A program made the translations under genes and the position numbers. Under the pieces are notes generated by a model. It was not told where the DNA came from, did no database searches, and worked only from the letters and a program-made list of their open reading frames with translations. From NCBI GenBank assembly GCA_040285855.1, contig JAUFOQ010000017.1:1240001-1304000 (forward strand): a stretch of DNA of 64,000 nucleotides, written 5' to 3'. The stretch comes from Eukaryota sp. GEM-RC1 (Eukaryota). Numbering within the stretch: the stretch's first letter is position 1; the number at the start of each line of letters is the position of its first letter. Positions 10,901-56,092 of the stretch are shown here, piece by piece.

Positions 10901-13029
10901 AGGAACAGACTTTTCAACAATTTCCGCTTCAGATTCTGAACTTTCAACATTATCATCATCAAATTGTTCATCTTGAATTTCAGGTACATAATTTTGAACA
11001 ATTTCCGCTTCAGATTCTGAACTTTCTACAATATCAACATCAAATTGTTCATCTTGAATTTCAGGTACAGAATTTTGAACAATTTCCGCTTCAGATTCTG
11101 AACTTTCTACAATATCAACATCAAATTGTTCATCTTGAATTTCAGGTACAGAATTTTGAACAATTTCCGCTTCAGATTCTGAACTTCCACCATGATGACG
11201 CTCAGCATCTGCTTCAGAGTCTTTACCATAATCACCATTGTCAAAGTGCTCATCAACAAAATCACCACGAACAGTATCCGAATCAAACTTACCAGAGCAT
11301 TCCTGTAATCCATTGTCAAACTTTTCGATACTAACTCGGAAAAGGTCTGACCCTCATCAACGTCATCAATAACGTCATCATCGACTATGTGATTGATCTT
11401 AGAATTATCATGACTGTGTTCAATATCCACAAACGTTGAAACAGTTTCGACAACATCTGCATTAGAAGGTAGGGATTCGCAATCAATCACATTTGATAGT
11501 GGCACGTCATCTTTGGACAAAAACTGACTGGAGCTTGGTAGAGGATTAGACGAAAATATTTCTGTAATTTTTTTGAATTTTTTCATTGCTAGTAGATCAA
11601 AATTGGGTGCTAGAATTAAATTTTCTAATGATTTATGATCAACAATTACTTGTTGAAATTGATGATCGAAAACCATTTCAAATACTGCTCCAATAGAGAC
11701 AAATGAATTTGAAAAATCAACAAATTGTAAATAATCTGCAGACGTTAAAAAATTCGACATTGTACTACATAGCTGGTCATCATCAGATGTCACTAATTTT
11801 TTAAAATTACAAGCGGATAAACTGACTAGACAAGAGTTTTGAATATTCCCTAAAACATTTAAAAATAGATCTGAATCAATTAAAATCTTATCAACAATTA
11901 ATTCCTCAATTAAACTGAAAACAATCAACAATCCATCAAAATTTGATTGCGAAAAGAAACACTGACTAAGATTCAACTTTTTAACTCCAATATCAGCAAT
12001 AACTGTGGCTAATTCATCAAATCCACCAGTAGAGATCATAGTCGAAGACAAATCTAAAACGGAAAGTGATCGTAACTCGGTCAAAATCAAAACGACAGAA
12101 TCAGCATTCAGATCATTTCCACTAAGATCAAGCTCAGATACATTGCTCTTGGACAAGGCCTTTCCTAGTAAAGAGCAATGAGTCATTGAAAGTCCAGTGC
12201 CACGTAGCACGAGACGTGATAGATTACACGACAAAACAATCAATTTTGATAGATTCAGCACACACATGTCATCCAACTGATTACATCCCAAATCTAAATT
12301 CTGTAGCACAGAGTTGCGATCCAATGAAGACACCAAAGCATCAAGAGATGAAGGTAAAAGGTTTGTACGGGAAAGGTTCAAGTGTGATAGACGTAGTTGA
12401 CAGCGTGGTTTGAAGAAGGTAGTAAGCCCTGGTTCAAGGTTAGGGTTGTTAGAGAAGTCAATGTGGGTGAGAGAGGAGTTAGAGGAAAGGACACGTGATA
12501 GGGAATGCAGGAGAGCGGGATGGAGGTTGGTTGAGGAGAGAGATAAGTCTGTGAGGTTTCGAAGAGAACAGATGAGATCAGAGAAAGCCATGATAGAAGG
12601 TTTGGAGGGGAAAACAGGACCATGAAGTGAAAGGTGTGAGAGGGAATGTAGTTGGGAGCAAGAGTGGTGAAGGGATCTGAAGAGAAAAGTAAAAGGGCAG
12701 TGATTAGGGTAGTCTGTACTAACTGCAGAGACAAATCCAGAGATTGACAGTGATGAGAGATTGCATCTAACCAAAAGATGCACTAGGCATGATGTGACGA
12801 GAGTAGTAGATAAGGGAAACAAAGAAGATAAAAGGGATTTACGGAAAAATGAAACAGAACCAACATGAAAGCGTCTAGTTGAAACTGTATTCAGAAGAGA
12901 CGCTAGTTCTTCTTCTGTGGATATTTGATCAAGACAGATCTGCAAATTCGATATGGCAGAATCGTTAGGAAAAGCGGAGAGAAGAGCATCACTTTCAACC
13001 TCAGTTGGAGGTAGAGTGAGCCAATGCAT
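7930..13029 (-). CDS. Large RNI-like leucine-rich repeat protein with central acidic 27-aa tandem repeats (frameshifted)
   Basis: LRRs (LTDLSLSSTNL, LTHIDFSNN, LQNLDLGCNQL, VSELDLSGNDL) in 11107-13089. Continues via a frame change near 11320 into the EIQDEQFD repeats (9089-10765 ORF) and via further shifts into the 8448-9053 and 8210-8530 ORFs. The single-gene model is inferred. Confidence 0.7.
9265..11190. repeat. 81-bp tandem repeat array, about 24 copies (coding: EIQDEQFDADNVESSESEVEIVENSVP)
   Basis: Unit GTTCATCTTGAATTTCAGG... recurs every 81 nt (9265, 9346, ...). Confidence 0.95.
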
Positions 13030-20063: not shown

Positions 20064-20372
20064 ATTCGCCATTATCTTTAAACTCTCCATTATTAAAAAT
20101 GTATATAAAATTATTTAAACATGTATTTTAGAGTCCGTTTAGGCAATTAAATTTCTACAGTCTACTGTTGCTTTAATGTATCCCTCGAATTGAAATCGAA
20201 TGACAAGTCTCTTCCAGCTCCTGTGAGACTCTATAGATTGCTGACTGTATTTGCTGCAATGCGTTACTGTCAAAATTCTACGAACGAAAGAATTAAAATA
20301 TTGATGCTGTGTCTAAAAAAAGTCGATTTAGATAACATATTGAACGACAACTTATGGGCCAATACAAGTATT

Positions 20373-21701
20373 TTATTCATCAGAAAAAGAAACTTCAGCT
20401 GCATCGACACTTTCAGCTACAAATAGCAAGTCATTTCTCTGTGAAGGATCAACATATCGTTTCAAATAAAACTCTTTCCAAACATAATCCATCACGTCAT
20501 CAACATCTGACTCCTTAACCATGGCAATACAATTCCCACCAAATCCTGCACCAGTCAACCTTCCTCCCAGTACAGACGGATGACCAAGCATCACTGATAA
20601 TAGTAAATCAATGTTAGGGGATGAACACTCGTAATTGTCTCGAAGGGAGTCTTGACTTTGATTCAATAGCTTTCCAAGAACTGTACAAATATTTAAATTG
20701 TCTCCTCCCAAAGAAGATAAATGATCAAATTCCATAACTCTTTGAAATTCTGTAACAACGTGCAATGCTCGTTTGAAAGGTTTGTAGTAGATATCAAAGG
20801 GATTGGTGGATGTAGCAAATGCATTTTTTAAAATTTTTGATTGAATGATGTCTGTTGAAATGTTTAACATTTCGGAAATTTCGAGCAAACTTAACGGTCG
20901 TTGAGGAATTGCACTTTGCAACACTTCTATCATGGCAGATGCTTCATAAACTTCCCCGGCATAAAAGACATCCCGTAGAGACAAAATTTCAAAAATATCA
21001 TCAAGATTCAAAAATTTGGCAACAAATACACACGCCATCCTCATTTCAACAACACATAGATTATATTTCAAATCCTTGGATTCCGCTTTATGACACTCTT
21101 CCAACGAATGTGCTACAATGAACTTAACACAAGAGGGAAGTAAATTTGAGTGACATCTCAAGGGAGAGAAAGATATGTAAGAGTAATGGGATCGCTTGGC
21201 ATTTAGAATGACTGCTTGGTCCATCCCACCACTTAGAGTGCCACAGAATTGTTCAGCTTTGCGTGTGAGTTCAGCAAGAACCATACGGTCGGTAATGGGT
21301 TGGGATAGGAAAAAGTAATTGAAGATTAACATGAAAGTAACTACAATGGCAGAGCTTGAACTTAAACCAGAGGCGATAGGGATGGTAGAGTGACAAGTGA
21401 CATTGAGACCTGAAGAAGTAAGAGGTGAAGATTGTAGATGGTGTATTCCTTTCAATGCACAAATGGCATATGAAGCAAGATTGGGTTTTGAACACGTTAT
21501 GGGGCTATTAGAGAGATTATTGGGATCATCAAGTGAGATATCAAAGGTCTGGTTGTTGATCGTTATGTGAATGGTGTTGGATTCTGTTTTCTTAACTTCG
21601 GCAGTGAAATACCTATTAATTGCAAAGGGGAGAACTTGGAAGTGAGAATAGTCCACATGTTCACCAATGATATTGACTCTAGAAGGTGTGCGAATAATCA
21701 T
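20373..21701 (-). CDS. GALK: Galactokinase / N-acetylgalactosamine kinase, copy 1
   Basis: PSRVNIIGEHVDY, PIASGLSSSSA (GHMP), GGMDQ, RALHVVTE, GGRLTGAGFGG. Confidence 0.93.
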   Translation of the reverse strand: MIIRTPSRVNIIGEHVDYSHFQVLPFAINRYFTAEVKKTESNTIHITINNQTFDISLDDPNNLSNSPITCSKPNLASYAICALKGIHHLQSSPLTSSGLNVTCHSTIPIASGLSSSSAIVVTFMLIFNYFFLSQPITDRMVLAELTRKAEQFCGTLSGGMDQAVILNAKRSHYSYISFSPLRCHSNLLPSCVKFIVAHSLEECHKAESKDLKYNLCVVEMRMACVFVAKFLNLDDIFEILSLRDVFYAGEVYEASAMIEVLQSAIPQRPLSLLEISEMLNISTDIIQSKILKNAFATSTNPFDIYYKPFKRALHVVTEFQRVMEFDHLSSLGGDNLNICTVLGKLLNQSQDSLRDNYECSSPNIDLLLSVMLGHPSVLGGRLTGAGFGGNCIAMVKESDVDDVMDYVWKEFYLKRYVDPSQRNDLLFVAESVDAAEVSFSDE

Positions 21702-21802
21702 AAAGAATAACTTTTCAGAAATGAAATGCATCGACTACTACAATGTAGTATGTTGAATCAGTTTCACTGCAGCAGAATATGCTAGAATCTGCGATGTGAG
21801 CC

Positions 21803-22735
21803 CAGGAGTGTGTATCGATAAAATCTTATTGTTCGATAACGATATATCTACTCTTATCGACCCGACAATTCTGAAAGATATAATTATCGACTGTCTCCAG
21901 CAACATTCCGATATATTGGGATAAATAAGGACAAATTGTTGGAGACAAAATAGACCATTTTTCTGGTTTCACTGAGTGATTTCACTGAAACATGTACACC
22001 GATTGTTTCATTTTTTCATTTTCTCTGGTCACATATCTATATTTATCTATATATGTGACATGGGTGATGTGATATGTGTGATTCACATGTATCACAAAAT
22101 GCATGAAAGTGTGATACCCAAGTATGTATTCAAGTAGGGTTTTAAGTTGATCTTACAAGTATAAAAGTTCATCTAACTTTAAAAGCTCAGTCGATCATTG
22201 GCATTTTTGTTGCGTTTTTCTCGTTAAAGACCAACGAAGTAGTACATTGTGTATTTGGGAGGTCAAAATTGAAACTTTCATATCGAAGTTAGTCTCACTG
22301 AGACCATTTTCTAGTGAGACTAATTGGAAACAATCGCTGTGTTGAAAAGTGTAGTAAAGACTGATAAATGATGTTGGAGAAATTGATTGCTGCAGCACAA
22401 TTACATTTGACCCATGATTTGTCCAGAAAAGACATTGAGGCTGTAGCAAGGTCGCCAACTTGTACTTTAGGCTAGCTAATTCTGCTCTAACCCCTCCAAA
22501 AGCTGAGCACAGAGATACGCGTGGTGCTTGGAAATGCGTTAAGCATAATAAACGTAGTTTTATTAATACACATATATTTCATATTTCTATTGTACGTCAT
22601 TCAATTATCGAAGATATTTTTACCGATTTATGGTTGAATAGTCCATAATTAGATAAGATATACTCCCTGACATTATATTTATCGAAGTTGCCTAACAAAA
22701 CGATAAATAAAAGATATCGAAAATACACACTCCTG
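21803..22735. mobile_element. hAT-like TIR element, about 933 bp, present only in duplication copy 1
   Basis: TIR CAGGAGTGTGTAT; TSD ATGTGAGC (21794-21801, 22736-22743); single empty site at 27326-27333 in copy 2. Confidence 0.92.
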
Positions 22736-23841
22736 ATGTGAGCTATCAATCAGTGAATCAAATGTAATTTACAAAGAGAAGAATATTAAATCGTCAATTC
22801 TATTACAAACACTACAATTGCCCTTGATATTAGGTGAATTTGGTTCCTCTAGTGACATTATTGGAAACAGAGTTTATGAATGAGACGGACTGTAATATGA
22901 ATCAAAATATTAGCTACGAAGCTCTAGACACTCTCATACAACATAATGACAAATATTCAAATGAGGGTAATGGAATCAAGTCTTGGCCCCAGATGTTCAA
23001 GTACTTCAAATTTAGTCTGCACAATTGCCTAATGGAATTCAAATTGTAGGAATTTGGTTAAACAAAACTTGAAATACAAAGAAAAGTTTTCATTGCTTCT
23101 GGTAGTGGCTGATCCAGATCATACAACTTCCTTATCATGTATATAACATGTGTTTGACACGTCACAGGGATATGCCTTGATATGATGAAGTCACGTGTCG
23201 GTAAACGTGTAAGGATGTAGTCAACACCATGTACAATTGTAAAAGCAGGGGATGTTGGTGCAAGAATTGGATGGGAACACAAGTATCCATCATAGATAGA
23301 AGCACGCTGCTATTAGATCAATGAGAAAGACTTGACGCTACTCAGGAACAGCGAGAAGTAGTTGCATCTGATCCAAAATGAATTAAAGATGAAGAAGAAG
23401 AAAGAAGAATTCTCTGGAAAAAAGAAGATTGAGAGAGGAAGGGAAAGCAATGCTACGAGCCTGTTTGACAACAAAGGGTATGATTGTAAGGGCAAATGAA
23501 GAGATCTAGCATATGAAACAATCTCTCTCCTTAATAGGTACAATAGTACGAGCAATGACAGAACGCAATTGAAGGTCATGATACGATGTGGATGTTAGAG
23601 CTAAAACACGGTTAGGGCAAATGATGTGATCACTGGCGGTATATAAGAGTTGATTAGGACACCAATATATGTTCCATCTCATACGAGGAGGATGTTAGAG
23701 CTAGAACACACTTGCAAGAAAAAAAACCAATGGAAGCGTGTTAGCACTGATATGACATTAAGGCCTGTCCGCTATACAAGCCGCCCTCAAGGCATTATAG
23801 AGAAGATAGAGATAGAGAAGATAAAGGCTTAAGACAACCCT

Positions 23842-25643
23842 AAAGTAGTATTTTATTAAAGCCATGAACATGAGAAAGACTCATCAGCTATTTAGAGGAT
23901 TGTTGGAAAAAGTCTATCACAAGCACTAGTGGTAGCAGTAAAAAGTGAAAAGAAAACTGTTGGCAAAATCAAAATCCCCTATGACACGGAATCCTGCTGA
24001 GAGGAAAGTGATGAACAATCAATTACAATGTCGACAGTGACTTATTTCCGTCTCATGACTCCATCAGGTTTGTTGATGTCTCACACAATAAGAGGTTCCA
24101 ATCCTCCTCGGCTGGATGTTTCGTATCCAGTTGAGACTGAAAGTTCCGTCCTTTCAGTTATGTGTTCAGGAGGTTCCAATCCTCCTAACACTATAAGAGG
24201 TTCCAATCCTCCTCGGCTGGATGTTTCATATCCAGTTGAGACTGAAAGTTCCGTCCTTTCAGTTATGTGTTCAGGAGGTTCCAATCCTCCTAACACTATA
24301 AGAGGTTCCAATCCTCCTCGGCTGGATGTTTCATATCCAGTTGAGACTGAAAGTTCCGTCCTTTCAGTTATGAATTTGGGTGGGGACTACGGCCCTAACC
24401 CAGGATTAACAACTCAGGGCAGTTGCAGAGAAGAGGCTTATAGCTTGATATCTGCAACTCCTGATGAGTTAATACCGCAGTGGTCCGTGTCTTGTTGTAA
24501 AACTCGACAAAAGCAATTCACTTTTGATTTGGAGAATAAACACAATTTCAAATTTTGTTTGATTCATTTGTTTGTGAAAGATTTAACCAACGATGGTGAT
24601 ATCGAGTCGAATCCCGGACCGGTATCATTTAACTCACATGAATTTGAAGACATAACATTGTTGTCTGAATGTGAATGGTTAGAGCTATTCCATCTTCTTT
24701 TTCCATAAATAATATCAGTTTGGATTACCCACTCGCCAATCAAACTATTGGATTTTTATCATGTATATAACTTTCTAACGTTAGAGAAAGATGTTATTTA
24801 TCATGATATAAGAGAAAAAAATGCAGATTGTCGGCTTGTTCTTATTCTCATGAACAATGGTATTATTGACGGATTTGCTGGAACTCACTGGGGACTATGT
24901 GTTATAGATTTCATGACTGAAACGTTATACTTCATGGATTCTATTTCTAACAGTGATTTGTTGTCCTCAAAAATTGATTTTATACAATCGTTTTGCCCAA
25001 ACAACTTTTACCATTGTCACATTAATTCTGTGAAACAGGACAATGGTTATGATTGTGGCATATTTGTTCTGTATTTTATTGAAGTTTTATTTAAGACATT
25101 TAACGTTGAAACAATTGATCACATTGATCACTGTATAATGATGACAGATTTTCAAAATGAAATTATGCATCATCAATTTGATCCCTCTCAATTTCGTATC
25201 AGATTGAACTTAAAACTGGACAGCCACGTTAATCCAGGAAAAAGGCTTGCCACTGTCAGCAATATGCCTCCAAGAAAACAAAAACGATCAAACAATAATA
25301 ATGAAAACGAACCCCAACTGGTGAAAAAACCAATTGGGCGTAAATGTTCAAAGTGTAGAAACACTGGTCATGATATAAGAAAATGCCCATTGGCAGTAAA
25401 AACAAGTGAAAAAACAAACGAAAAAGAATCACCAGTTAAGTCTGAAAAAAGAAAAGATCCTTTCGAAAACGTAACCTTAATGTTAGATCACAAACACTCG
25501 ATTAAGTGCATTTTTGTGAAAATGATCGAAGCTTCAGCAGCTATTAAAGAAACTAAAAAAGAAAAAAGAGAAAAAAATAATCACATCAATTATCACTCAA
25601 ACAGTTCAAGTCCAGGACCAAGTAATTACAATTGTAGAATCAA
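23842..25643 (+). mobile_element. 3'-truncated copy of the Fanzor element (repeats, 2A, Ulp1-like protease, zinc knuckle)
   Basis: Near-identical to 28432-30125; ends at the duplication junction. Confidence 0.85.
24085..24372 (+). repeat. 105-bp (35-aa) coding tandem repeat, about 2.8 copies (about 1.8 copies in copy 2 at 28675-28857)
   Basis: AGAGGTTCCAATCCTCCTCGG at 24091, 24196, 24301. Confidence 0.9.
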
Positions 25644-25907
25644 AATTATTTAAACATGTATTTTAGAGTCCGTTTAGGCACTTAAATTTCTACAGTCTAC
25701 TGTTGCTTTAATGTATCCCTCGAATTGAAATCGAATGACAAGTCTCTTCCAGCTCCTGTGAGACTCTATAGATTGCTGACTGTATTTGCTGCAATGCGTT
25801 ACTGTCAAAATTCTACGAACGAAAGAATTAAAATATTGATGCTGTGTCTAAAAAAAGTCGATTTAGATAACATATTGAACGACAACTTATGGGCCAATAC
25901 AAGTATT

Positions 25908-27236
25908 TTATTCATCAGAAAAAGAAACTTCAGCTGCATCGACACTTTCAGCTACAAATAGCAAGTCATTTCTCTGTGAAGGATCAACATATCGTTTCAA
26001 ATAAAACTCTTTCCAAACATAATCCATCACGTCATCAACATCTGACTCCTTAACCATGGCAATACAATTCCCACCAAATCCTGCACCAGTCAACCTTCCT
26101 CCCAGTACAGACGGATGACCAAGCATCACTGATAATAGTAAATCAATGTTAGGGGATGAACACTCGTAATTGTCTCGAAGGGAGTCTTGACTTTGATTCA
26201 ATAGCTTTCCAAGAACTGTACAAATATTTAAATTGTCTCCTCCCAAAGAAGATAAATGATCAAATTCCATAACTCTTTGAAATTCTGTAACAACGTGCAA
26301 TGCTCGTTTGAAAGGTTTGTAGTAGATATCAAAGGGATTGGTGGATGTAGCAAATGCATTTTTTAAAATTTTTGATTGAATGATGTCTGTTGAAATGTTT
26401 AACATTTCGGAAATTTCGAGCAAACTTAACGGTCGTTGAGGAATTGCACTTTGCAACACTTCTATCATGGCAGATGCTTCATAAACTTCCCCGGCATAAA
26501 AGACATCCCGTAGAGACAAAATTTCAAAAATATCATCAAGATTCAAAAATTTGGCAACAAATACACACGCCATCCTCATTTCAACAACACGTAGATTATA
26601 TTTCAAATCCTTGGATTCCGCTTTATGACACTCTTCCAACGAATGTGCTACAATGAACTTAACACAAGAGGGAAGTAAATTTGAGTGACATCTCAAGGGA
26701 GAGAAAGATATGTAAGAGTAATGGGATCGCTTGGCATTTAGAATGACTGCTTGGTCCATCCCACCACTTAGAGTGCCACAGAATTGTTCAGCTTTGCGTG
26801 TGAGTTCAGCAAGAACCATACGGTCGGTAATGGGTTGGGATAGGAAAAAGTAATTGAAGATTAACATGAAAGAAACTACAATGGCAGAGCTTGAACTTAA
26901 ACCAGAGGCGATAGGGATGGTAGAGTGACAAGTGACATTGAGACCTGAAGAAGTAAGAGGTGAAGATTGTAGATGGTGTATTCCTTTCAATGCACAAATG
27001 GCATATGAAGCAAGATTGGGTTTTGAACACGTTATGGGGCTATTAGAGAGATTATTGGGATCATCAAGTGAGATATCAAAGGTCTGGTTGTTGATCGTTA
27101 TGTGAATGGTGTTGGATTCTGTTTTCTTAACTTCGGCAGTGAAATACCTATTAATTGCAAAGGGGAGAACTTGGAAGTGAGAATAGTCTACGTGTTCGCC
27201 AATGATATTGACTCTTGAAGGTGTGCGAATAATCAT
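25908..27236 (-). CDS. GALK: Galactokinase / N-acetylgalactosamine kinase, copy 2
   Basis: Same GHMP motifs as copy 1; retains YNLRVVE. Confidence 0.93.
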   Translation of the reverse strand: MIIRTPSRVNIIGEHVDYSHFQVLPFAINRYFTAEVKKTESNTIHITINNQTFDISLDDPNNLSNSPITCSKPNLASYAICALKGIHHLQSSPLTSSGLNVTCHSTIPIASGLSSSSAIVVSFMLIFNYFFLSQPITDRMVLAELTRKAEQFCGTLSGGMDQAVILNAKRSHYSYISFSPLRCHSNLLPSCVKFIVAHSLEECHKAESKDLKYNLRVVEMRMACVFVAKFLNLDDIFEILSLRDVFYAGEVYEASAMIEVLQSAIPQRPLSLLEISEMLNISTDIIQSKILKNAFATSTNPFDIYYKPFKRALHVVTEFQRVMEFDHLSSLGGDNLNICTVLGKLLNQSQDSLRDNYECSSPNIDLLLSVMLGHPSVLGGRLTGAGFGGNCIAMVKESDVDDVMDYVWKEFYLKRYVDPSQRNDLLFVAESVDAAEVSFSDE

Positions 27237-28617
27237 AAAAAACAGAAAACAAACTAAAGAAAAACTTTTCAGAAATGAAATGCGTTGAATCAGTTTCACT
27301 GTAGTAGAAGATACTAGAATCTGCGATGTGAGCTATCAACAGTGAATCAAATGTAATTTAGAACGAGAAGAATATTAAATCGTGAATTCAATTACAAAGA
27401 CAACAATAGCCCTTGATATTAGACGAATTTGGTTCGCTAATCACGTTATTTGAAACAGAGTTTATGAATGAGACGGACTGTAATAAGTATCAAAATAATA
27501 GCTACGAAGCTCTCGACACTGAACATATTGGAGCCACAGTTCTCATACAACATACTGACAAATATTCAAATAAGGGTAATGGAATCAAGTCCTGGCCCCA
27601 GATGTTCAAGTACTTCAAATTTAGTCTGCACAATTGCCTAATGGAATTCAAATTGTAGGAATTTGGCTAAACAAAACTTGAAATACAAAGAAAAGTTTTC
27701 ATTGCTTCTAGTAGTGGCTGATCCAGATCATACAACTTCCTTATCATGTATATAACATGTGTTTGACACGTCACAGGGATATGCCTTGATAAGATGAAGT
27801 CACTTGATGGTAAACGTGTAAGGATGTAGTCAACACCGTGTACAGTTGTAAAAGTAGGGGATGTTGGTGCAAGAATTGGATGGGAACACAAGTATCCATC
27901 ATAGATAGAAGCACGCTGCTATTAGATCAATGAGAACGACTTGACGCTACTCAGGAACAGCGAGAAGTAGTTGCATCTGACCCAAAATGAATTAAATGAA
28001 TTCTCTGGAAAAAGAAGATTGAGAGAGGAAGGGAAAGCAATGCTACGAGCCTGTTTGACAACAAAGGGTAGGATTGTAAGGGCAAATGAAGAGATCTAGC
28101 ATATGAAACAATCTCTCTCCTTAATAGGTACAATAGTACGAGCAATGACAGAACGCAATTGAAGGTCATGATACGATGTGGATGTTAGAGCTAAAACACG
28201 GTTAGGGCAAATGATGTGATCACTGGCGGTATATAAGAGTTGATTAGGACACCAATATATGTTCCATCTCATACGAGGAGGATGTTAGAGCTAGAACACA
28301 CTTGCAAGAAAAAAAACCAATGGAAGCGTGTTAGCACTGATATGACAATAAGGCCTGTCCGCTATACAAGCCGCCCTCAAGGCATTATAGAGAAGATAGA
28401 GATAGAGAAGATAAAGGCTTAAGACAACCCTAAAGTAGTATTTTATTAAAGCCATGAACATGAGAAAGACTCATCAGCTATTTAGAGGATTGTTGGAAAA
28501 AGTCTATCACAAGCACTAGTGGTAGCAGTAAAAAGTGAAAAGAAAACTGTTGGCAAAATCAAAATCCCCTATGACACGGAATCCTGCTGAGAGGAAAGTG
28601 ATGAACAATCAATTACA

Positions 28618-29193
28618 ATGTCGACAGTGACTTATTTCCGTCTCATGACTCCATCAGGTTTGTTGATGTCTCACACAATAAGAGGTTCCAATCCTCCTCG
28701 GCTGGATGTTTCATATCCAGTTGAGACTGAAAGTTCCGTCCTTTCAGTTATGTGTTCAGGAGGTTCCAATCCTCCTAACACTATAAGAGGTTCCAATCCT
28801 CCTCGGCTGGATGTTTCATATCCAGTTGAGACTGAAAGTTCCGTCCTTTCAGTTATGAATTTGGGTGGGGACTACGGCCCTAACCCAGGATTAACAACTC
28901 AGGGCAGTTGCAGAGAAGAGGCTTATAGCTTGATATCTGCAACTCCTGATGAGTTAATACCGCAGTGGTCCGTGTCTTGTTGTAAAACTCGACAAAAGCA
29001 ATTCACTTTTGATTTGGAGAATACACACAATTTCAAATTTTGTTTGATTCATTTGTTTGTGAAAGATTTAACCAACGATGGTGATATCGAGTCGAATCCC
29101 GGACCGGTATCATTTAACTCACATGAATTTGAAGACATAACATTGTTGTCTGAATGTGAATGGTTAGAGCTATTCCATCTTCTTTTTCCATAA
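28618..29193 (+). CDS. N-terminal segment with 35-aa repeats and 2A (StopGo) peptide
   Basis: FVKDLTNDGDIESNPGP matches the D(V/I)ExNPG-P consensus exactly (29083-29106). Confidence 0.8.
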   Translation: MSTVTYFRLMTPSGLLMSHTIRGSNPPRLDVSYPVETESSVLSVMCSGGSNPPNTIRGSNPPRLDVSYPVETESSVLSVMNLGGDYGPNPGLTTQGSCREEAYSLISATPDELIPQWSVSCCKTRQKQFTFDLENTHNFKFCLIHLFVKDLTNDGDIESNPGPVSFNSHEFEDITLLSECEWLELFHLLFP

Positions 29194-29232
29194 ATAATAT
29201 CAGTTTGGATTACCCACTCACCAATCAAACTA

Positions 29233-29720
29233 TTGGATTTTTATCATGTATATAACTTTCTAACGTTAGAGAAAGATGTTATTTATCATGATATAAGAGA
29301 AAAAAATGCAGATTGTCGGCTTGTTCTTATTCTCATGAACAATGGTATTATAGACGGATTTGCTGGAACTCACTGGGGACTATGTGTTATAGATTTCATG
29401 ACTGAAACGTTATACTTCATGGATTCTATTTCTAACAGTGATTTGTTGTCCTCAAAAATTGATTTTATACAATCGTTTTGCCCAAACAACTTTTACCATT
29501 GTCACATTAATTCTGTGAAACAGGACAATGGTTATGATTGTGGCATATTTGTTCTGTATTTTATTGAAGTTTTATTTAAGACATTTAACGTTGAAACAAT
29601 TGATCACATTGATCACTGTATAATGATGACAGATTTTCAAAATGAAATTATGCATCATCAATTTGATCCCTCTCAATTTCGTATCAGATTGAACTTAAAA
29701 CTGGACAGCCACGTTAATCC
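29233..29720 (+). CDS. Ulp1/SENP (C48) cysteine protease domain, SENP8/DEN1-like
   Basis: GTHWGLCVID (His 29371), YFMDS (Asp 29422), KQDNGYDCGIFVL (Gln and Cys 29539). Confidence 0.88.
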
Positions 29721-29747
29721 AGGAAAAGGCTTGCCACTGTCAGCAAT

Positions 29748-32700
29748 ATGCCTCCAAGAAAACAAAAACGATCAAACAATAATAATGAAAACGAACCCCA
29801 ACTGGTGAAAAAACCAATTGGGCGTAAATGTTCAAAGTGTAGAAACACTGGTCATGATATAAGAAAATGCCCATTGGCAGTAAAAACAAGTGAAAAAACA
29901 AACGAAAAAGAATCACCAGTTAAGTCTAAAAAAAGAAAAGATCCTTTCGAAAACGTAACCTTAATGTTAGATCACAAACACTCGATTAAGTGCATTTTTG
30001 TGAAAATGATCGAAGCTTCAGCAGCTATTAAAGAAACTAAAAAAGAAAAAGAGAAAAAAATAATCACATCAATTATCACTCAAACAGTTCAAGTCCAGGA
30101 CCAAGTAATTACAATTGTAGAATCAATTATATTCACTACACAACAAAGTTGCGATTCAGTTCTGTCACCTAATTCTGAGCATGCTAGAGTGAATGTTCAA
30201 GCGTTTAATCAAGAGGAATCTATAATTAGTGCGTTTAATGATTATTTAGTTTTAACTGACTGTGGTCTGATAATTGGTTATGATGCAAGTTCTACGATGG
30301 ATGAATTTAATTTAAAATCAGAGAATTGTTCAATTATTCAGTGTCCTCTTTTTTACAAATATTTTTTAAAACAATTCAAAAATTCAAAAATTCAGTTAAT
30401 AGATTTGGGCCGTGTTATTAGAAATTATTACAGACCTAGAACTGGAAAATCTTTGAATTGGGTTACTGTTGTAAAGAACATTTTAAAAAATGAAAGTTAT
30501 TCAGTTCCCACACCAGTTTCTACAGATTTCACCATTGAACAAAACTTGAACTGTTTACGTGAACATTTTAACGATATTGTTGAATTACAAAGCCTTTTTG
30601 TGTATTTCCTTCAAGTCGAAACACAAGAATTGCTGAAATGCCCGGGTGAAAAAACGGTTATAGTAACCCTAAAATCTGTTTGGACTGATAACAACATATT
30701 GGTAGATGAAATTTCTATAAATCATCACCGAATTAAACAACGTGCATTGCTGCTACTTCAAGGCTTTTGCATGAACTCTTTTGATAATCAGGAATTGAAT
30801 CCAGTAGAATGGACCAAAGAAAGTGTCCACCAATTGCTCTGGACTATTGGATTCTTGTCTCCATTAGCTCATCAAAGATTTAAAAATGAGGAAAATATTG
30901 ATGGAAGTGAAATTCTCAAATGGGTAACTGAGATTGTTCAAAGTACTCCAGGCAAAAAGCACAATGCTTTAAAAATTCAACTCGGATGCTTCTATATCCA
31001 ACATCTTCTCCCCGTGGATATGGAAATTCCCAATGTCAAGTACTCTGATATGTCTCGTACATTAAGTTATACAGCTACTGAGATTGTTACAATGTATCAA
31101 AATAATATTTCATCCCATTTTATTGAATATTTGGAAAAAACATGGGAACTCTTCTTTAATTTAAATGGACAACTAAAAATTATTAAAAACAATGCACTTA
31201 AAAAAGTCGAAAAAGACCAGTTGCAAAAGTTGTCCAATAATATCCTTAAAGAAATTTTAGAAGGCAGAGGATCCGATATTGATTTTACCGAGATCTGGCA
31301 AAATCCATCAGATGAACATCAAAATTTCATTACATTTGTCAAAAACTTTAAGCCAGACTCTAAAGGACTCAAATACCAATTAAAGGTAAAGCCTTTGGAG
31401 CTCTTACCAGAGGCCTTCGTTCTCAACAAATTGATTGAGAATAACCCTTCCTGTAATGAGATTCCACCAAAGATGTACCGCATGTTTCCACAATCCACCA
31501 GCTTAATTCCTGATCACCTTCGATTGGACACGTAAGCTATGATTAAATTATTCAAACCTCAAGTTCAAGGTTATAATCTAACACATCTGACCAAAAACAT
31601 TAATTTATTTAAAAATGAAATTTGGAGCCAGTATTTGAATCTTGATCACAAATACTTGAACACTTTCAAAAGATGTATTCATTTGGTCACCAGATAACTA
31701 CCAATGGTGAATCAATCAGTCTCATGATGACCAGAAATGATCTACTGTTCAAACCATACTCTGCCAAGTCTCCGGAGGAAAAAGAGGAGTATGTGGAAGA
31801 TTTACATCCTGAAAAATTAGAGGATTTTAAAAAATAAAAAAAGTCGTGGTAGGGGACCCTAACCAATGGGATATTCTGTACTTGGTTGGAAGAAAAACCC
31901 AGGAAGAAATTGATAATTCTGGGCATTGTGCTCCCCACTTGACCCAAAAATCTCAAAAACATATGAAAAGAAGAGATTGAAAGAAATTAAAAGGCATAAA
32001 GCCCAGTTCCAAAAAGAGAATGATGAGGTCAAAAAATCAAGTAAAAAGAGACCATTTCAAAAGAAAAATCAATTCAAAAAAATGAGATATACTCAAGGAA
32101 CTCGAAGGCACGAAGGAAAACAAAAAAAAATACAATGTATTTCAGAACCAAGCCTTCAATAACTATTCTTTTACCGAAATTTCAGGAAGACAACTGACAG
32201 CTGAACAGATTCAGACAGAATTTTCAGAATTTACTTCCAAAACAACAAAGTTTTCAAAATTTAAAGCTTACGTCCAACAATTCTACAAGTATGCAAATAG
32301 AATGGAGTCTCTGTACCATCAATCTAAATGGCGCAAATGGAGCTATTGGAAATCAGTATACAAGGAAAAAAGTGAACGTAAAATGCTCCATCGATTCCGT
32401 CAAGTTTACGGAGATCCAACCAACACGTGGTTGGCCATAGGTGATTGGAGTCAGTCAAGGCATAGGAAATACAAGCCTCCAACCATGGGGAAAGGATCAA
32501 GAAAGTTGTTCAAAAAGCTGGCTATCAGGTTCTTCTGGTTAACGAATTCAGGACATCTCTTCAGTGCCACGGATGTTCTGAGAACAACGATGACGAAGGG
32601 GAAACGGAAACCTTCCTTAAAGTCAAGGATCCAAACTTCAGGAAGAAGAAGCGAAGAGTTGAAAAGAAGGCAAATCGCCTATCAGCGCTGATGAATTGGT

Positions 32701-33017
32701 CTAGTTGGACGGACGAAGATGACAAGCTGTTGTGGCAGGAAGAGGCAGATGAAGTCAAGTGTTGGGGTTTAGTGCGTTGTAAAAAATGTCATAAACTCTG
32801 GAATCGAGACTTCAATAGCTGTTTGAATATTCTGAAGATTGTTGAGTGTACTCTCGCTGGTGAGGATCGACCAATGTGTTTCTCCGACAAGTTAGCTGAA
32901 GAAAGACGGAAGAGAGCAGCAAAGAGTACAAACAACAATGAAGATTCAATAACAGAAACAGTGGCGGACCCGCAAGGGATAGAACCGCCACAGCCCATGT
33001 GCACTGAATGTAGATGA
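29748..33017 (+). CDS. Zinc knuckle + degenerate exonuclease-like domain + Fanzor1 (TnpB-family RuvC) nuclease; interrupted in this assembly
   Basis: CSKCRNTGHDIRKC knuckle; Fanzor1-type motifs LSYTATEIVTMYQNNISSHF, FPQ..IPDHLRLDT, ITTNGESISL; RuvC-I VVVGDP (31855); MRYTQ; LAIGDWS..PPTMGKG; RuvC-II VLLVNEFRTSLQCHGC (32544); zinc ribbon CKKC; RuvC-III WNRDFNSCLNI (32808). One TAA at 31533 plus several frameshifts, mostly in A runs. Confidence 0.88.
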
Positions 33018-33100
33018 ATGTCCATATATCGTTACATCTTAGGAGAAATTCACAGAAAATGAATTAAGAAAACTACTCTTGACAACTCTCTTTTGAAATG
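32955..33100 (+). ncRNA. Candidate Fanzor omegaRNA (scaffold plus start of guide)
   Basis: GTGGCGG/CCGCCAC stem enclosing a CCC-GCAA-GGG tetraloop hairpin; AATTCA/TGAATT hairpin; located at the ORF 3' end and element right end. Confidence 0.55.
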
Positions 33101-33779
33101 AACAATTGCTGAGTCACCGTCTTGTAAACTAGCTATTGGTGATCTTTGCGTGTAAAGACAGAAGCATTTTCGAAAAGACTATTGTTTGATATTGTTGATC
33201 AATTTTCCAACACTGTTTTGAGCTACATTTTCTACCTACAAAGAGAGTTTGCTGTCGATATTTTTGATGTATCTTAAAGATTATAACTTGTACCCTGAAA
33301 CACTAATTAAAGAAACATATTAAATAATATCCAAAGTAAGTAACAAAAACAGTCATCAGAAATTCCAATGTTTGATTTTACATTGTACTTTTGAAATGAG
33401 TTGTTTGAAATATTCAGAATCGGTTTGAATGGATACTACAATGGTAATTCCTTGTTTTTAATTCCTTGTTTTTTTTAATTTTCTAAATCACGTCAATTAA
33501 TCATCCAGAAACACTAATGATCCGAGCCAATCATTTATTCGCGTTGATTTGCCAACTGAGTAAACACATATTCTAGTCAAACGTTTGTATTAGAAACAAT
33601 TGAAAATTGCACAAAATCTACATTGTTTCCGTTTGACTAATTTAACAAATTTTGAAAGTGGTAAACATGGTCTTATAATCAAGACAGTTAAAAACAAAAT
33701 TAGTAACAAATGAAAAAACAATATGATAAGCAGAAATTTGAAAAATTGGTTCCATCATTACTGAAAATTAGTAGAACCA

Positions 33780-34440
33780 TTGAAGTAAAACGTGAATTCG
33801 TAACAAAATGATTGTGAGTTTTCTATAACACACATCCTGAACCAACACAATTAAAAAATGTCCAATTACTATTAAAGATTTGATAGTTGAATAACCGATT
33901 CAAAACTTTTTGCAGTTTCAATCAGCAACTTTTCAACTTCTGGTATTTCCTTTACCTTACAAAACACCTGTAATTCAACAACTAACTCCTCTTCTTCAGC
34001 CAAACGATACACAAGCATCTGCTGGTTTGAAAAGAATAACAGCTGCCTTTCTTAGTTCGATTTCCAATCTCTGAAAATCCCAGAGACCGAAGAAAGCTCT
34101 TTGAAGAAGAGCCATACATGTGAGAAGTATTGAAGGATTCTATTTTTATCCTTAGTGAAGTTCGTTGAGGGAGAGAGTGGAGGATGATGGTTCTGTCAAG
34201 GTCTGATGAACAGTCTTTTGATCGATCAGGATGAAGACAGCTTGATGGATGTCAGGAAGTTGAGTACATCTAAATAAGGTTTCTTTCACGTCAAAATTGA
34301 CTGGGACAGCTGAGAATATATTGAGAAGATCAGTGAGTTTGTGAAGATCTGAGGAAGAAATAACTCCACGAAGACAGCATCTTACTTCAATAGAGCTGGA
34401 GAAAGGTGGGAAAAAGAGAGGCATGTGTGAAGCCAACAAT
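33780..34440 (-). CDS. Hypothetical protein, fragmented
   Basis: Coding-like composition and a 95-aa ORF with apparent continuation across frame breaks; no recognisable motif. Confidence 0.3.
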
Positions 34441-37895: not shown

Positions 37896-38334
37896 TTTGT
37901 CTGACCGTTTTTTGGTAGGTTTTTTGTGTTAGTTTATTTTTTAGTTTTTTTGTTCTTTATATTTAAGTTTAGCAAACGGTTTGGTACTGCTGTTTGTATT
38001 CAAAGCAAGGTTTGCAGATTTTCTTTTATGCACTCCTTATTACATTTTGTCTAGACACAGTTAATTATTGATTTAGTAGTATTATTTCATTTAAAACTAT
38101 ACAAATTCGATATGGTCACAGAAACAAAGGATCAGACAATGTTTTAGACTATGTCCTCAACGTTATTTCTTAGACGTTCTTTAATTTTATTTGAACTTGG
38201 AATTTCTATTTCATACATAAGGTTTTACTCACGACAATATCACGAAAAAATGTTAAACCACTTCAAACACCGTCTTATGGTTGGCATGTGTAAATCTTTG
38301 AATACCAGATTTGAGAAGTAGCAAACATTATAGT

Positions 38335-39270
38335 CAGGGGTACTCAAAATTGAATTGCCAATTAATTGGTTCTCAAATTATGGAAACAATTAATATTGCA
38401 ATTAGTGCAATTAATTGGCAATTAATTGACCAATTCATCAGTTATTGTTTATGAAAACAAAATCGTAGATTATAAAACTAAATTCGGAATACAATCGTGT
38501 TCCGCATACAAATTTGCTTCGCCAATCTTCGTTAAAACTTCCCTTCCCACAACAAAGGCATTTTGTACCCCTCTTTTATTATCCTTAAGAGAATGTCTGC
38601 TGGCAGAAATCGATCGCTTTCCGTCTGTCTCACCATTATCAACATTGACAACATTGCTGTGCAGGGCCATTGTTCGACACTTTAACCATTGAAAAGTTTT
38701 CAGTTATGTTGGTGGAGTCTTGTTATTGCTATATAAATTTGTGATTTGAAATACATAAATCAAAAAGATTTAACTTCTTCTGAATCGGCTAATGTTTTTT
38801 TTTGAGATGATCTTTTATTCGAGAATAAAAAAAAGATGATCTAAAACTCAATGTCATCAAAACAAGATTCCTTCGAATCGAACCTTGTTGAAGCTTTGTC
38901 TTCATAAAAACACACTTAGGGATAACAAAGCTTTTGAAATCATTGTTGGAACTGCCTTTAGAATCGTAAAGACAATTCGGTTCTGCCAAAAGAACGATCA
39001 AATATTTTGTGATCGGCTAATGTAGACACACTTTATGAGATTTCGATAAAAAAGTTTTTGTTCGCACACATTTTTTAAAGCTAGATTGCTTTCTTTTCGC
39101 ATTTCAATAATTGTTCTGCAGTATATTCATAACAAACTGATTAGACCAATAATTGGTTAATTGGTCAATTAATTGCCAATTAATTGGTGGGGTATGACGA
39201 TCGACCAATTAATATTGCAATTAATTGATTGGCAATAACTGAATTGGCAATTCAATTTTGAGTACCCCTG
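38335..39270. mobile_element. hAT-like deletion derivative, 936 bp
   Basis: Perfect TIR CAGGGGTACTCAAAATTGAATTGCCAATT; TSD ATTATAGT; minus-strand remnant ending 'IKDHLKKKH' (possibly BED-finger-like). Confidence 0.9.
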
Positions 39271-39278
39271 ATTATAGT

Positions 39279-40274
39279 CAGGGCTCTGTAATATTGAATT
39301 GCCAATTCAATATTGTCAATAAATATGTACCAATATTGATTGGTTGCCGAAAAACCAATACCAATATATTGCCAATATTGATCAATATGGATGTTTGGGT
39401 ATTTTGTCTCAAACATCTACGGGACAATGTATATGAGTGTCTGTCAGCTGTACATTAATTGAACTTCTTAGTACAAATGAGCCAACCACTTACGTTATGA
39501 GAAAATCTGTCAATCCAATAGAAGAATTATATAGTTCAAACTTAACTTACTCTTACTATCTTTATGACGGACAATAAAACAATCTGTCTCACCTTTTATT
39601 CCCTTACATCCAAGAATTTGAGTCCGGTGTCTTGAAAGTAATTGATGGAACCGAAAGTTTATTTACTACTCAAGAAAAGAACTATCTTCAGAAGTTTGAA
39701 ATGGGGGAAAGTCCTGTCATTTTGTTTCCAGAACCAGAAAGTCAGGGAAGGAGAGAAAGGAACGCTTTCTGAACGAGCCTCTCAATTATCACAGACCAGA
39801 AGAACTGCCAATAGAAAATATCAAGATTTGACTTGGATTCCAGCCACTTCTGTGGAGATTGAGAGACTTTTTTCCAAAGTCAAACTTGCAGTTGGAATGA
39901 CTCGCTATTCTTTATCCAATAGCAGATTGAAAGCTCAACTTTGGTTGCATTACAACAGAAGTCTTTGGAATGTTGGAACTGTTCGTAAAGCTTGTTGAAT
40001 ACAATTAATCAATGTTAATCTAAAGAAGTCTTTAGTTTCTTTTTCTGGATTAGTATGTATTATATTATAATTATTGTTGCAAGTACACTCTTCATTGGTT
40101 TTACAGTAGTAGTTTATTGTTTTATGCATTTTAGAAGTAGATCTTGATAAAGCTACTTCATATACTAGGTTTAACTATATTGGCAATATTGGCAATATAT
40201 TGGTCGATACCAATATTGATTGGAAGGTCAAAAACCAATACCAATATATTGCAATACAATATTACAGAGCCCTG
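39279..40274 (+). mobile_element. hAT deletion derivative with C-terminal dimerisation domain, 996 bp
   Basis: TIR CAGGGCTCTGTAATATTG; TSD ATTATAGT; ORF 39642-39998 contains 'WIPATSVEIERLFSKVKL..RYSL..L.AQLWLHYNRSLW'. Confidence 0.93.
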
Positions 40275-41159
40275 ATTATAGTACACCTTTCTTTATATTT
40301 GTATACATATGTGATTTCTTACGATTAATGTTTCAAACATCTGACATTATACTGTATATGTAACAGTATCTATTTTTCCTTCATGTTCCTTCATCTAGAA
40401 GTTGTTGATTGATAGGATTCTTTAAAAAATGTGGAAATTTAATTATACATGTAATCTTCTGAAAACATTAAAATTTGTTATCATCCAAACAAGACACATC
40501 ACGGTCAAATCGTTCAATTGCTTTGTTCATATAACGAACTCACAGAGAAAGATAGGATCTTTTATAGGAAATTAAGATACTGATGAAGATAGATTACACA
40601 ACGATTAGCAACACCCATGTAGTGTTGCCACATTATATTAAACAATGAAATTCTCATTCTGAACAAACTACATTTAGAATACAAAACAACATTCAAGTCT
40701 GCTGGATGAGGTCGAGGAAGACTTGCTCCTTATACGTGGGAAAAAAGCCACAAGCAAAGAAAAGTTGAATTGAGTCTGAGGGGTGTGAATCAATTGATTA
40801 ATAGGAATTTATGGAGTGAATTTTATTGCAGAAAAAGTGAGTGTTACTAAAAACGTACATTTTACATGTGTAGCTCGTTAGTTGCTCATGGGTCAATACT
40901 TATGTATATGTTCACTACTCAAACTAAAAAATATGAGGTAATACAACATCTCTGCTCTTGTATTTATCTATTTGTACTTTTTGCACCCCTTGTATTTTCC
41001 AGGTACAACAGTACATGTAGTACTTAAAAAACGAATTGATTTGAAAATGATTTGAACGGACTTGCAGACAAACAATGACATTTCGTCTTCTCGGAACTGC
41101 GAAATTGTTGTGGTGACGTGATAATTAATAAATACTACTTAAGGTCTTTAAAAGATCGT

Positions 41160-49778: not shown

Positions 49779-50883
49779 ATGTCACAAGCTTACAAAGGAA
49801 GTCATGGCAAAATTGGTGTTTTTGGAGGCTCTTATGAATACTGTGGTGCTTCCTTCTTTGCTGCCATGTCTGCCTTAAAGTATGGTGCTGATTTGTCATC
49901 CATAATATGTTCTCCAGACGCTGCAATCCCAATCAAGTCATATTCTCCCGATCTCATCGTTTTCCCTTCCTTATATGACATACCTGCGTGTATGGAACTT
50001 ATTCCCAGATTTGATAGCATTGTGATCGGTCCTGGAGCTGGCAGAAGCGAATCAGCCGTTGCATCAATGAAACAGATCATTCCCAAGGCAATTGAGTCTG
50101 CTAAAGTAGTTGTACTTGATGGAGATGCTCTCTGGTTGTTATCCCAAGACAAGTCTATTCTACCTTCTGATTTTGGATCTTGTACAGTAGTTTTAACCCC
50201 AAACTTTATGGAATTAACCCGTCTTTGTCATACGTATCTTGATCGTACCCCACGAGATGTATCACGTAATTTTTCAGGTAAGCTGGGAAAAGACTAGGTA
50301 CATTTGTTGTTCAAAAGGGACCAGTAGATTTCATTGGAACACCCTCTGGAGTTTCCTTTTTGGTAAACCTTCCACAAGATATGAACAACCAAAAAGACCT
50401 GGAGGACTAGGTGATATACTTGCGGGTTGTATTGCTGTCTATACGCTGCACGGTTTGCGATCTAATGATCGTGTTGAGTTGGCTTTAGACGGAGCTTGTC
50501 AGGTTAACAGATGTGTTGCTTACAAAACTTTTAAAATGTGGAGTTTATGTTATTCAATGACTGCTTCGGATGTGCTTAAGAACATTAAACAAAAGAGTCG
50601 ACTCAAGCTACCGCTGTCAGTTCTGAGAAAGCATCAGTATTACTTGTTTTTTTGGATTAGTTTGGCTTTCGCGTACTTGTTGGTATTTATTGCATACAAA
50701 CATGGTGATCGGTTTGCGGGCGGAATGATTCTTTGTTTTCTGGCCGTGTTGTTACTTTTCTCTATCTCTGCTCTTATCGATGATAGGGGACCTTTCAGGG
50801 ATGAACTTCAACAAACAAATTACGACGGTGTTACAACCATTCAATCAGGACAGTCTAAGGACAAGGTCTCACACTCTGATTAA
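49779..50883 (+). CDS. NAXD: ATP-dependent (S)-NAD(P)H-hydrate dehydratase (YjeF-C/CARKD)
   Basis: KGSHGKIGVFGGSYEYCGA, IKSYSPDLIV, VIGPGAG, VLDGDAL, LTPNFME, RPGGLGDILAG; frameshifts around 50290-50365. Confidence 0.92.
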
Positions 50884-51760: not shown

Positions 51761-53149
51761 ATGGAATCGATCCAAGTAGTTTGTCGGATACGTCCTCTTT
51801 CTGCTTTTGAGTTATCCAACAATGCTTCCTCAATTGTCGATACTCCTTCATCAAACCTCATTCGAGTTCATGTAAACGAAGAACAATCCTTTGACTATTC
51901 CTTCCACACAGTTCTTCCTGAATCAACTTCTCAAGCTTCCGTATTTTCTTCCTGTAACATTCCTCAATTACTCGACTTAGCTCTTCAAGGATATCCATGT
52001 TCCATTCTATGCTATGGTCAAACTTCCGCTGGTAAGACATACACTCTCTTTTCTCCTAACAATCCTTCTCCAGCTGATCTTGGCATCATCTACCGCTCTT
52101 TAGACTACCTCAACACCATCCAATCTTCCTCCATCCGAGTTTCTGCTTCCTTTCTCGAAGTCTACAACGACAATGTCTTTGACCTTTTAAATGACTCAGC
52201 ACAGGTCTCCTTAAAGTTCAACTCAAAACGCAGTGAGTTCTATCCTTCAGGAGCTTTTGTTGTTGACTGTATGTCGTTAGATGATTGCTTCGCGGTGATT
52301 CAGGAAGGTCTTGGGAAAAGAGCAACAGGGTCTCACGAAGTCAACGTTGACTCGTCAAGAAGTCACGCTCTGTTGACGTTAAACTTTCCTGATTCAGGAG
52401 GGAAACTTACCTTTGTTGATTTAGCTGGGTCAGAAAAGGTCAAAAGACTAATTCTTCAGGCGTGACGTTGCAGGAATCCAAGTTTATCAACAAGTCTCTT
52501 CATCATCTTGGAAACGTCATAGCTTCCAGATCGAAGCAATCAAAAGGAAGTAAGGCTCATATATCATATCGTGATTGCAAACTCACGTCGCTTTTGATGG
52601 ATTCTCTAAACGGAAACTCTTTCAGTCTATTGATTGGAACAGTCACGCCAGCAAGTTTGTTTTACGACGAAACCATTTCTACTCTTTCCTATTGCTCTTT
52701 GGCTAAGAAAATCAAGACAAATCCTGTCCGAACTACTGATGACAAGGGTAAGGAGGTGGAGTTGTTGAGAAGGGAAGTACGTGAATTAAGAAGAAGATTG
52801 GGGGGAGTTGGAAAGGGAAAATGGTCACGTTAGTGATTCTGAGGGTTCGGTTTTGATCCCTTTTAGGAGGGATTCTGATTTTGAGACGCAATCAGTCATG
52901 TCGAGTGATTCACAGTCGAATCATGCTTTGATTGCTCTGAGTGAGGTTAAAACAACTCTTGCCAGAAATGGAAGAAGGAAACCAGTAGGGATCAGTTCGG
53001 TCAAAAACCGGAATGACGTGGAAGGATTACGGAAGGCCAATAATCAATTAAGACATGAGCTGCAGGCAATGCGACGTCAAGAAGCGTTGTATGTTGAGCA
53101 AATTGAGAAGTTGTTGGAACGAGATTTGTCAGATTGTTTGTCACTGTAA
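51761..53149 (+). CDS. Kinesin, KIF12-like
   Basis: VVCRIRP, YGQTSAGKT, SSRSHAL, GGKLTFVDLAGSEKV, HISYRDCKLT; homopolymer frameshifts near 52445 and 52810. Confidence 0.88.
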
Positions 53150-55959: not shown

Positions 55960-56092
55960 TTATGACACTGCACCGCTGCAATATTCACCTACAGTTCGAG
56001 GTGTATTTTTACGAAAAATTTTGAGAAGAGTTGGGAATTGAACTTCATGTTTACTTGGTTGACGAATTCCGAACCATCAAGAAATGTGGACC
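55960..56092 (+). pseudogene. Decayed Fanzor fragment (RuvC-II region)
   Basis: 'YSPTVRGVFLRKILRRVG' followed, after a frame break, by 'HVYLVDEFRTIKKC'. Confidence 0.65.

Follow-up and report, generated by a model that had tools for sequence, protein, structure and literature searches.

In GtFz1, SpuFz1 and PpFz1, the omegaRNA hairpin SL1 consists of seven pairs and the region beyond it is variable (PMC11423790, in the part available). In GtFz1 (PDB 9CER) the scaffold overlaps the C-terminal codons of the gene by 17 residues, and SL1 is followed by three more defined stem-loops. Fanzor proteins are recognised by a D-P at RuvC-I, a RuvC-III aspartate and, six residues ahead of the zinc finger, an alternative glutamate for RuvC-II, and the WED-domain motif of Fanzor1 is TDG (available part of PMC10711439). 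As overlap of Fanzor1 omegaRNAs with the gene end is established, a hairpin at that place is what one would expect of such a system.

The window, by which we mean the whole 64-kb stretch of DNA that was analysed, contains a gene which, judged from its sequence, is a Fanzor1 with all three catalytic residues, and a hairpin within the 3' end of this gene that is likely to be SL1 of its omegaRNA. We read the hairpin as SL1 because its position, stem length and flanking bases are common to relatives; its predicted fold has the seven pairs of the described systems. The locus resembles SpuFz1 and PpFz1 (PDB 8GKH and 9CF0; PMC10432273 and PMC11423790, each in the part available) in the Fanzor1 protein (profile matches to 9cf0 at 2e-97 and to 8gkh at 1.8e-93) and, as compared by eye, in an RNA whose 7-bp SL1 follows a short x-C leader and is separated by a short linker from a second stem. 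The window differs from these two systems in the GCAA sub-hairpin inserted into the candidate SL1, in the position of this SL1 within the ORF, in an N-terminal protein extension of about 300 residues and in that inverted repeats were not found. The overlap with the C-terminal codons, about 19 residues, is like that of GtFz1, whereas no stem-loop beyond the second was supported in the window.

Table 1. Features of the Fanzor1 locus (positions in the window).
Feature	Position	Strand	Remarks
DGDIESNPGP motif	29077..29106	+	upstream reading frame
Ulp1-family protease domain	29302..29604	+	PF02902, E 4.2e-10 and 9.2e-10
Fanzor1 gene	29748..33017	+	about 1088 codons if read through, X at breaks
N-terminal extension of Fanzor frame	29823..30287	+	putative CCHC zinc knuckle, exonuclease-like domain
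Likely omegaRNA SL1	32958..32992	+	A-C-A, 7-bp stem 32961-67/32985-91, then A
GCAA (GNRA) sub-hairpin, 3 bp, in SL1 loop	32969..32978	+	predicted, probability 0.98-0.99; 6-nt bulge after
Predicted second stem-loop after 4-nt linker	32996..33016	+	candidate scaffold end 1, ~33016
Downstream hairpins	33040..33082	+	candidate scaffold end 2, ~33080-82; no better than shuffles
GCGTGTAAA	33148..33156	+	8/9 match to relatives' right end; candidate scaffold end 3, ~33156

In a Pfam scan of 29 ORFs, kinesins, galactokinase, RRM and ribosome-biogenesis genes marked the window as eukaryotic, and the frame ending at the stop codon TGA at 33015-17 contained the TnpB/Fanzor domain PF07282 (E 5.8e-8). A profile of 27 relatives matched three frames colinearly over 30650-32880 (E 6.5e-68, 3.9e-31 and 3.3e-9), and homology extended to the N-terminal lobe of Fanzor1, not to RuvC alone (profile positions 14-324, E 6.7e-40). 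When the alignment profile of the relatives was compared with the PDB, the three Fanzor1 chains PpFz1, SpuFz1 and GtFz1 were the only matches; direct similarity of the C-terminal piece of the window protein to 9cf0 was low (E 0.041). The RuvC-I motif is DPN (31855-63), as in relatives and SpuFz1, where DPN and not DPG is also found. The RuvC-II residue is the alternative glutamate (E at 32544-46), the RuvC-III aspartate is encoded at 32808-10, and the four zinc-finger cysteines are present. At the place of the WED motif TDG the window gene reads TNG (31700-08). The closest proteins for which DNA is available are 26-29% identical over about 650 residues. Two sister copies from Eukaryota sp. GEM-RC1, P0005 and P0006, are known at the protein level only, and each is 95% identical to the window Fanzor1.

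The reading frame of the gene is broken, a point that the first-pass annotation of this DNA did not mention. There is an in-frame TAA at 31533-35, and the frame changes five times (near 31670, 31830, 31920-31970, 32125 and 32515). P0005 has a Met at the place of the in-frame stop and terminates at the same first frame break. Every break lies near a run of at least four A, and such a run occurs in 40% of the gene's 30-nt windows. The host kinesin gene, too, changes frame at an A run (52439-52446); Pfam positions 1-240 are covered before the change and 244-327 after it. A look-alike frame change at a short A run was seen at 50285-50292 in a carbohydrate-kinase gene, in this case without Pfam confirmation. 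The kinesin and carbohydrate-kinase changes suggest homopolymer errors in the assembly and, because the host kinesin is broken in the same way, some of the Fanzor1 breaks may be assembly errors as well. The copy may be either a relic or mis-assembled.

The stem of the hairpin is formed by GTGGCGG and CCGCCAC around CCC-GCAA-GGG. Stem and sub-hairpin paired with a probability of 0.97-1.0 in all five intervals folded, and the interval 32955-33000 folded with a z of -2.90 (one of 200 shuffles as good) and in a separate run with a z of -3.38 (0/200); the first stem and its GNRA hairpin, as annotated in the first pass, are hence real. It is the sole perfect 7-bp stem with at least six G-C pairs and a loop of up to 25 nt in the window, although in folding strength it ranks 13th among the best 40-nt hairpin windows. 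It was also correctly seen that the scaffold would overlap the 3' end of the ORF: the hairpin lies wholly inside the coding tail, 156 nt past the RuvC-III NRD and 57 nt before the stop. The description of a GC-rich island held for 44 nt (32961-33004, 66% GC), one of 13 such clusters in the window, but not for the whole annotated interval 32955-33110, which at 40% GC is below the preceding coding DNA (44%). Of the structures annotated in this interval, the first hairpin alone exceeded chance; the interval in full gave a z of -1.34 with 21 of 200 shuffles as good. The longer interval 32900-33110 folded at a z of -4.05, aided by long-range pairing with upstream coding DNA. Rfam searches gave no match to the hairpin and only chance-level matches at 32000-34000.

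For comparison, 240 loci of distant relatives on giant-virus and metagenome contigs (L001-L240) were used. Rows for an RNA alignment were taken from 80 loci, from which 7 without the right-end motif (4 of them incomplete), 9 duplicates and a further 28 at 90% identity were removed. Three of the remaining 36 (L011, L022 and L035, with a wrong start or of great length) and five insertion-bearing loci were excluded, so that the alignment comprised 28 sequences; the starts of L075 and L077 were placed by hand. The relatives have a conserved right end (73 of the 80 loci, and 151 of 159 anchored loci), with an inverted copy upstream, within the flank examined, in 20 of the 73. Directly past the right end, conservation dropped from 92-100% to 34-50% in 64 distinct loci. 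In the 28 non-redundant sequences the RNA begins with UCA and an SL1 of eight pairs; some 10 nt of linker then lead to a helix closing on the element end. Their SL1 was paired in 97.3% of 224 cells with double changes in seven of the eight pairs, and its covariation score was 0.968 compared with 0.242 when shuffled and up to 0.23 when slid, counts that are inflated by kinship among the sequences. SL1 starts 92-180 nt past the RuvC-III NRD and -20 to 176 nt before the stop; it overlaps the ORF in 31 of 34 relatives and contains insertions in 6 of 34. Scaffolds are 77-208 nt long, the shortest (77 nt) being those of L004-L006 and L010. As a side observation, the closing helix of the strongly covarying omegaRNA in this large giant-virus and metagenome clade is formed with bases of the terminal repeat and of the target. 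In two further places (L071:3878-3960 and L114:1107-1170) SL1 was present without the standard right-end repeat and was followed by other hairpins.

The candidate SL1 shares with these TIR-bounded elements its place, the flanks (CA before the opening G, A after the closing C) and a loop C-G (32971-72, the same place as in the relatives). When a 7-bp stem was placed along both strands (4603 placements), the candidate alone combined these flanks with the loop C-G; the flanks without the loop criterion occurred in 6 of the 4603, and the features were picked post hoc. Its linker is unlike that of the relatives (score -15.9), with an overall rank of 261 of 4603, and its 5' base is A, where U stands in all 28 of the relatives aligned. 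A covariance model of the relatives' full scaffold gave the candidate -0.3 bits and had no match in the window at E up to 10, and a model of the 5' module did not match the candidate. This miss counts truly against SL1, if only weakly, because the same model failed on 6 of 16 held-out Fanzor loci too and gave most insertion-bearing SL1s, four of them, an E of 0.3-0.9. The claim that a Fanzor gene is accompanied by an omegaRNA starting at the hairpin was supported by position, stem length and flanks and not by the covariance-model search. DNA of close relatives was found neither in viral contigs (0 of 6 stretches) nor in metagenomes (0 of 180); of the 122 GC-rich loci returned by a pattern scan with the exact stem, none had a Fanzor that reached the inclusion threshold, and a protein search with the 108-residue tail ORF gave 0 of 3 candidates.

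Three positions were considered for the end of the scaffold. SL1 together with the second stem (32955-33020) folded with a z of -3.64 (0/200 shuffles), MFE and centroid being equal, and would give a compact two-stem form as in SpuFz1 and PpFz1. The motif GCGTGTAAA, which was picked after looking, has a chance rate of 0.03 per 230 nt. It could pair in part with 32997-33004, the expected start of the closing helix; folding formed no helix between the two. L001-L240 end in a conserved inverted repeat, whereas the window has this 9-nt partial match and no left repeat was found. The reverse complement of 33136-58 was absent upstream at up to 6 mismatches, a TIR search of 32950-33500 against four upstream blocks gave best scores of 21-25, which is the chance level, and no TSD was found. 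An end near 33156 is tentatively favoured and one near 33016 is a weaker possibility; an end near 33082 is rather unlikely, and we rate an end elsewhere the same. Candidate guides had only 3-mismatch matches within the window. The decayed remnants at 57.1 and 62.5 kb were rejected as a guide to the element end, their downstream parts being too decayed. In the zinc-finger region they are homologous (score 77 against a null maximum of 32), and nhmmer with a two-copy profile detected the remnant zinc-finger region at E 1.2e-7; the old remnant at 62.5-63.0 kb has no SL1-like hairpin.

The best overall explanation, which we consider probable, is a Fanzor1 gene whose omegaRNA has the hairpin as SL1. 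The RNA would start near 32958 with SL1, followed by a short linker and a helix that closes at the right end of the element, and about 15 nt of flanking DNA beyond this end would supply the guide. By analogy with described systems (PMC10432273, PMC10711439 and PMC10530073, each in the part available), it may be cut from the 3' end of the transcript, and SL1 may bind the RuvC/TNB surface. The roughly 15 nt past the element end might then guide cleavage of DNA beside the TAM, which would help the element to persist. The model proposed in the first pass differs in placing three further stems after SL1, closing the scaffold at 33080 and starting the guide at 33081. Its strings all exist where it placed them (ATGTA 33008-12/TACAT 33033-37, AATTCA/TGAATT 33047-65, AGGAG 33041-45/CTCTT 33076-80), the helix at 33040-33081 is the MFE of an isolated 46-nt piece, its 123-nt scaffold is within the range of the relatives, and GtFz1, too, has three stem-loops after SL1. 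The downstream stems nevertheless folded like shuffles (z +0.18 for 32993-33110, +0.30 for 33005-33085 and -0.47 for 33040-33085), and the guide start at 33081 is unsupported for this reason. The AGGAG/CTCTT helix reached a probability of 0.18-0.26 in one of five intervals and at most 0.04 in the other four, and the ATGTA/TACAT stem competes with the second stem of Table 1 and is excluded by it. The relatives' closing helix moreover begins about 10 nt after SL1, not 50, and the remnant at 62.5-63.0 kb shows weak colinearity that extends beyond 33081 up to about 33135 (z 2.7-3.0 in one of 12 hand-picked intervals; nhmmer found nothing there). The full model is unlikely.

A hairpin arising by chance from the codons of a disordered protein tail, with the true omegaRNA elsewhere or lost, would agree with the missed covariance models, with the lack of an Rfam match and with the 12 other 40-nt windows that fold more strongly. 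That the one GC-rich 7-bp stem of this kind in the window falls, with matching flanks, into the interval of about 90 nt in which the relatives' SL1s start makes this quite improbable. Least probable is that the hairpin marks, at the DNA level, the end of a Helitron-like (rolling-circle) element, instead of or besides forming an RNA stem. Fanzor1 occurs in Helitrons, whose 3' ends bear a hairpin and CTRR (PMC3627910, in the part available), and here the GC-rich hairpin is followed after 12 nt by CTGA (33004-07), a CTRR, with no TIR found. Such an end would leave the Fanzor1 stop codon outside the element, no Rep/helicase was present among the 29 ORFs scanned, and the flanks match SL1s of TIR elements. 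At the insertion site of Helitron1, T is expected after the CTRR end, whereas the base after CTGA is A. If the hairpin is SL1, it comes from a divergent system, whose protein is 27% identical to those of the closest relatives for which DNA is available, and its insertion, located in a stem kept by all solved structures, bears on how far SL1 can change.

More unusual than the hairpin is what is joined to the Fanzor frame. The upstream frame contains DGDIESNPGP, which we take to be a 2A-like motif, together with the Ulp1 protease domain, and is interrupted by a stop in each copy of a tandem duplication; in the copy at 24709-25653 the protease frame continues in frame into the Fanzor N-terminus. 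The extension matched PF00098 (CCHC knuckle, E 0.057) and PF03104 (polymerase-type exonuclease, E 0.0079), both below the Pfam cut-off and to be read as leads only. Its Atlas matches were at 0.83-0.87, and its AlphaFold model was uninformative (pLDDT 37). A protease, a knuckle and a possible exonuclease joined to Fanzor would suggest a carrier element that was unmatched in the searches. No description of this arrangement was found in the papers searched, including the available part of PMC3627910, and the supplements of the papers may list such domains. It is doubtful that the locus is an intact, recently spreading, TIR-less Fanzor1 element of an unclassified protist lineage, with a polyprotein that joins the 2A-like motif, the protease, the knuckle and the exonuclease-like domain to Fanzor1, a branched GNRA-capped SL1 and a scaffold of possibly about 59 nt. 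A hammerhead-like string near 28946 was dropped after Rfam gave no more than chance-level matches at 27300-29800, and a scan for bacterial promoters and terminators, unsuited to a eukaryote, stayed at chance level.

Several other repeats and elements were seen in the window. The tandem duplication (20092-25643 and 25625-30126) comprises galactokinase and the 5' part of the Fanzor element and is 95-99% identical; its first copy stops at about Fanzor codon 130 and harbours an insertion of about 930 bp (21801-22734), presumably a hAT-like MITE, whose terminal inverted repeats measure 13 bp and whose target duplication measures 8 bp. Upstream of the 2A-like motif, tandem repeats of 105 bp with strong hairpins are located at 28670-28857 and 24080-24372 (2 and 3 units), and the adjacent 28860-29060 also folded well (z -2.96). 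Heavily decayed Fanzor-related remnants lie at 57022-58205, 62436-63313 and 55964-56099, the first two being 72-75% alike. About 25 copies of an 81-bp unit are found inside long minus-strand ORFs at 9095-11338. Finally, nested elements at 38329-40280 have inverted repeats in common, which end in TATA/TA, and the fragment at 39645-39998 resembles, by eye, the C-terminal end of a hAT transposase.
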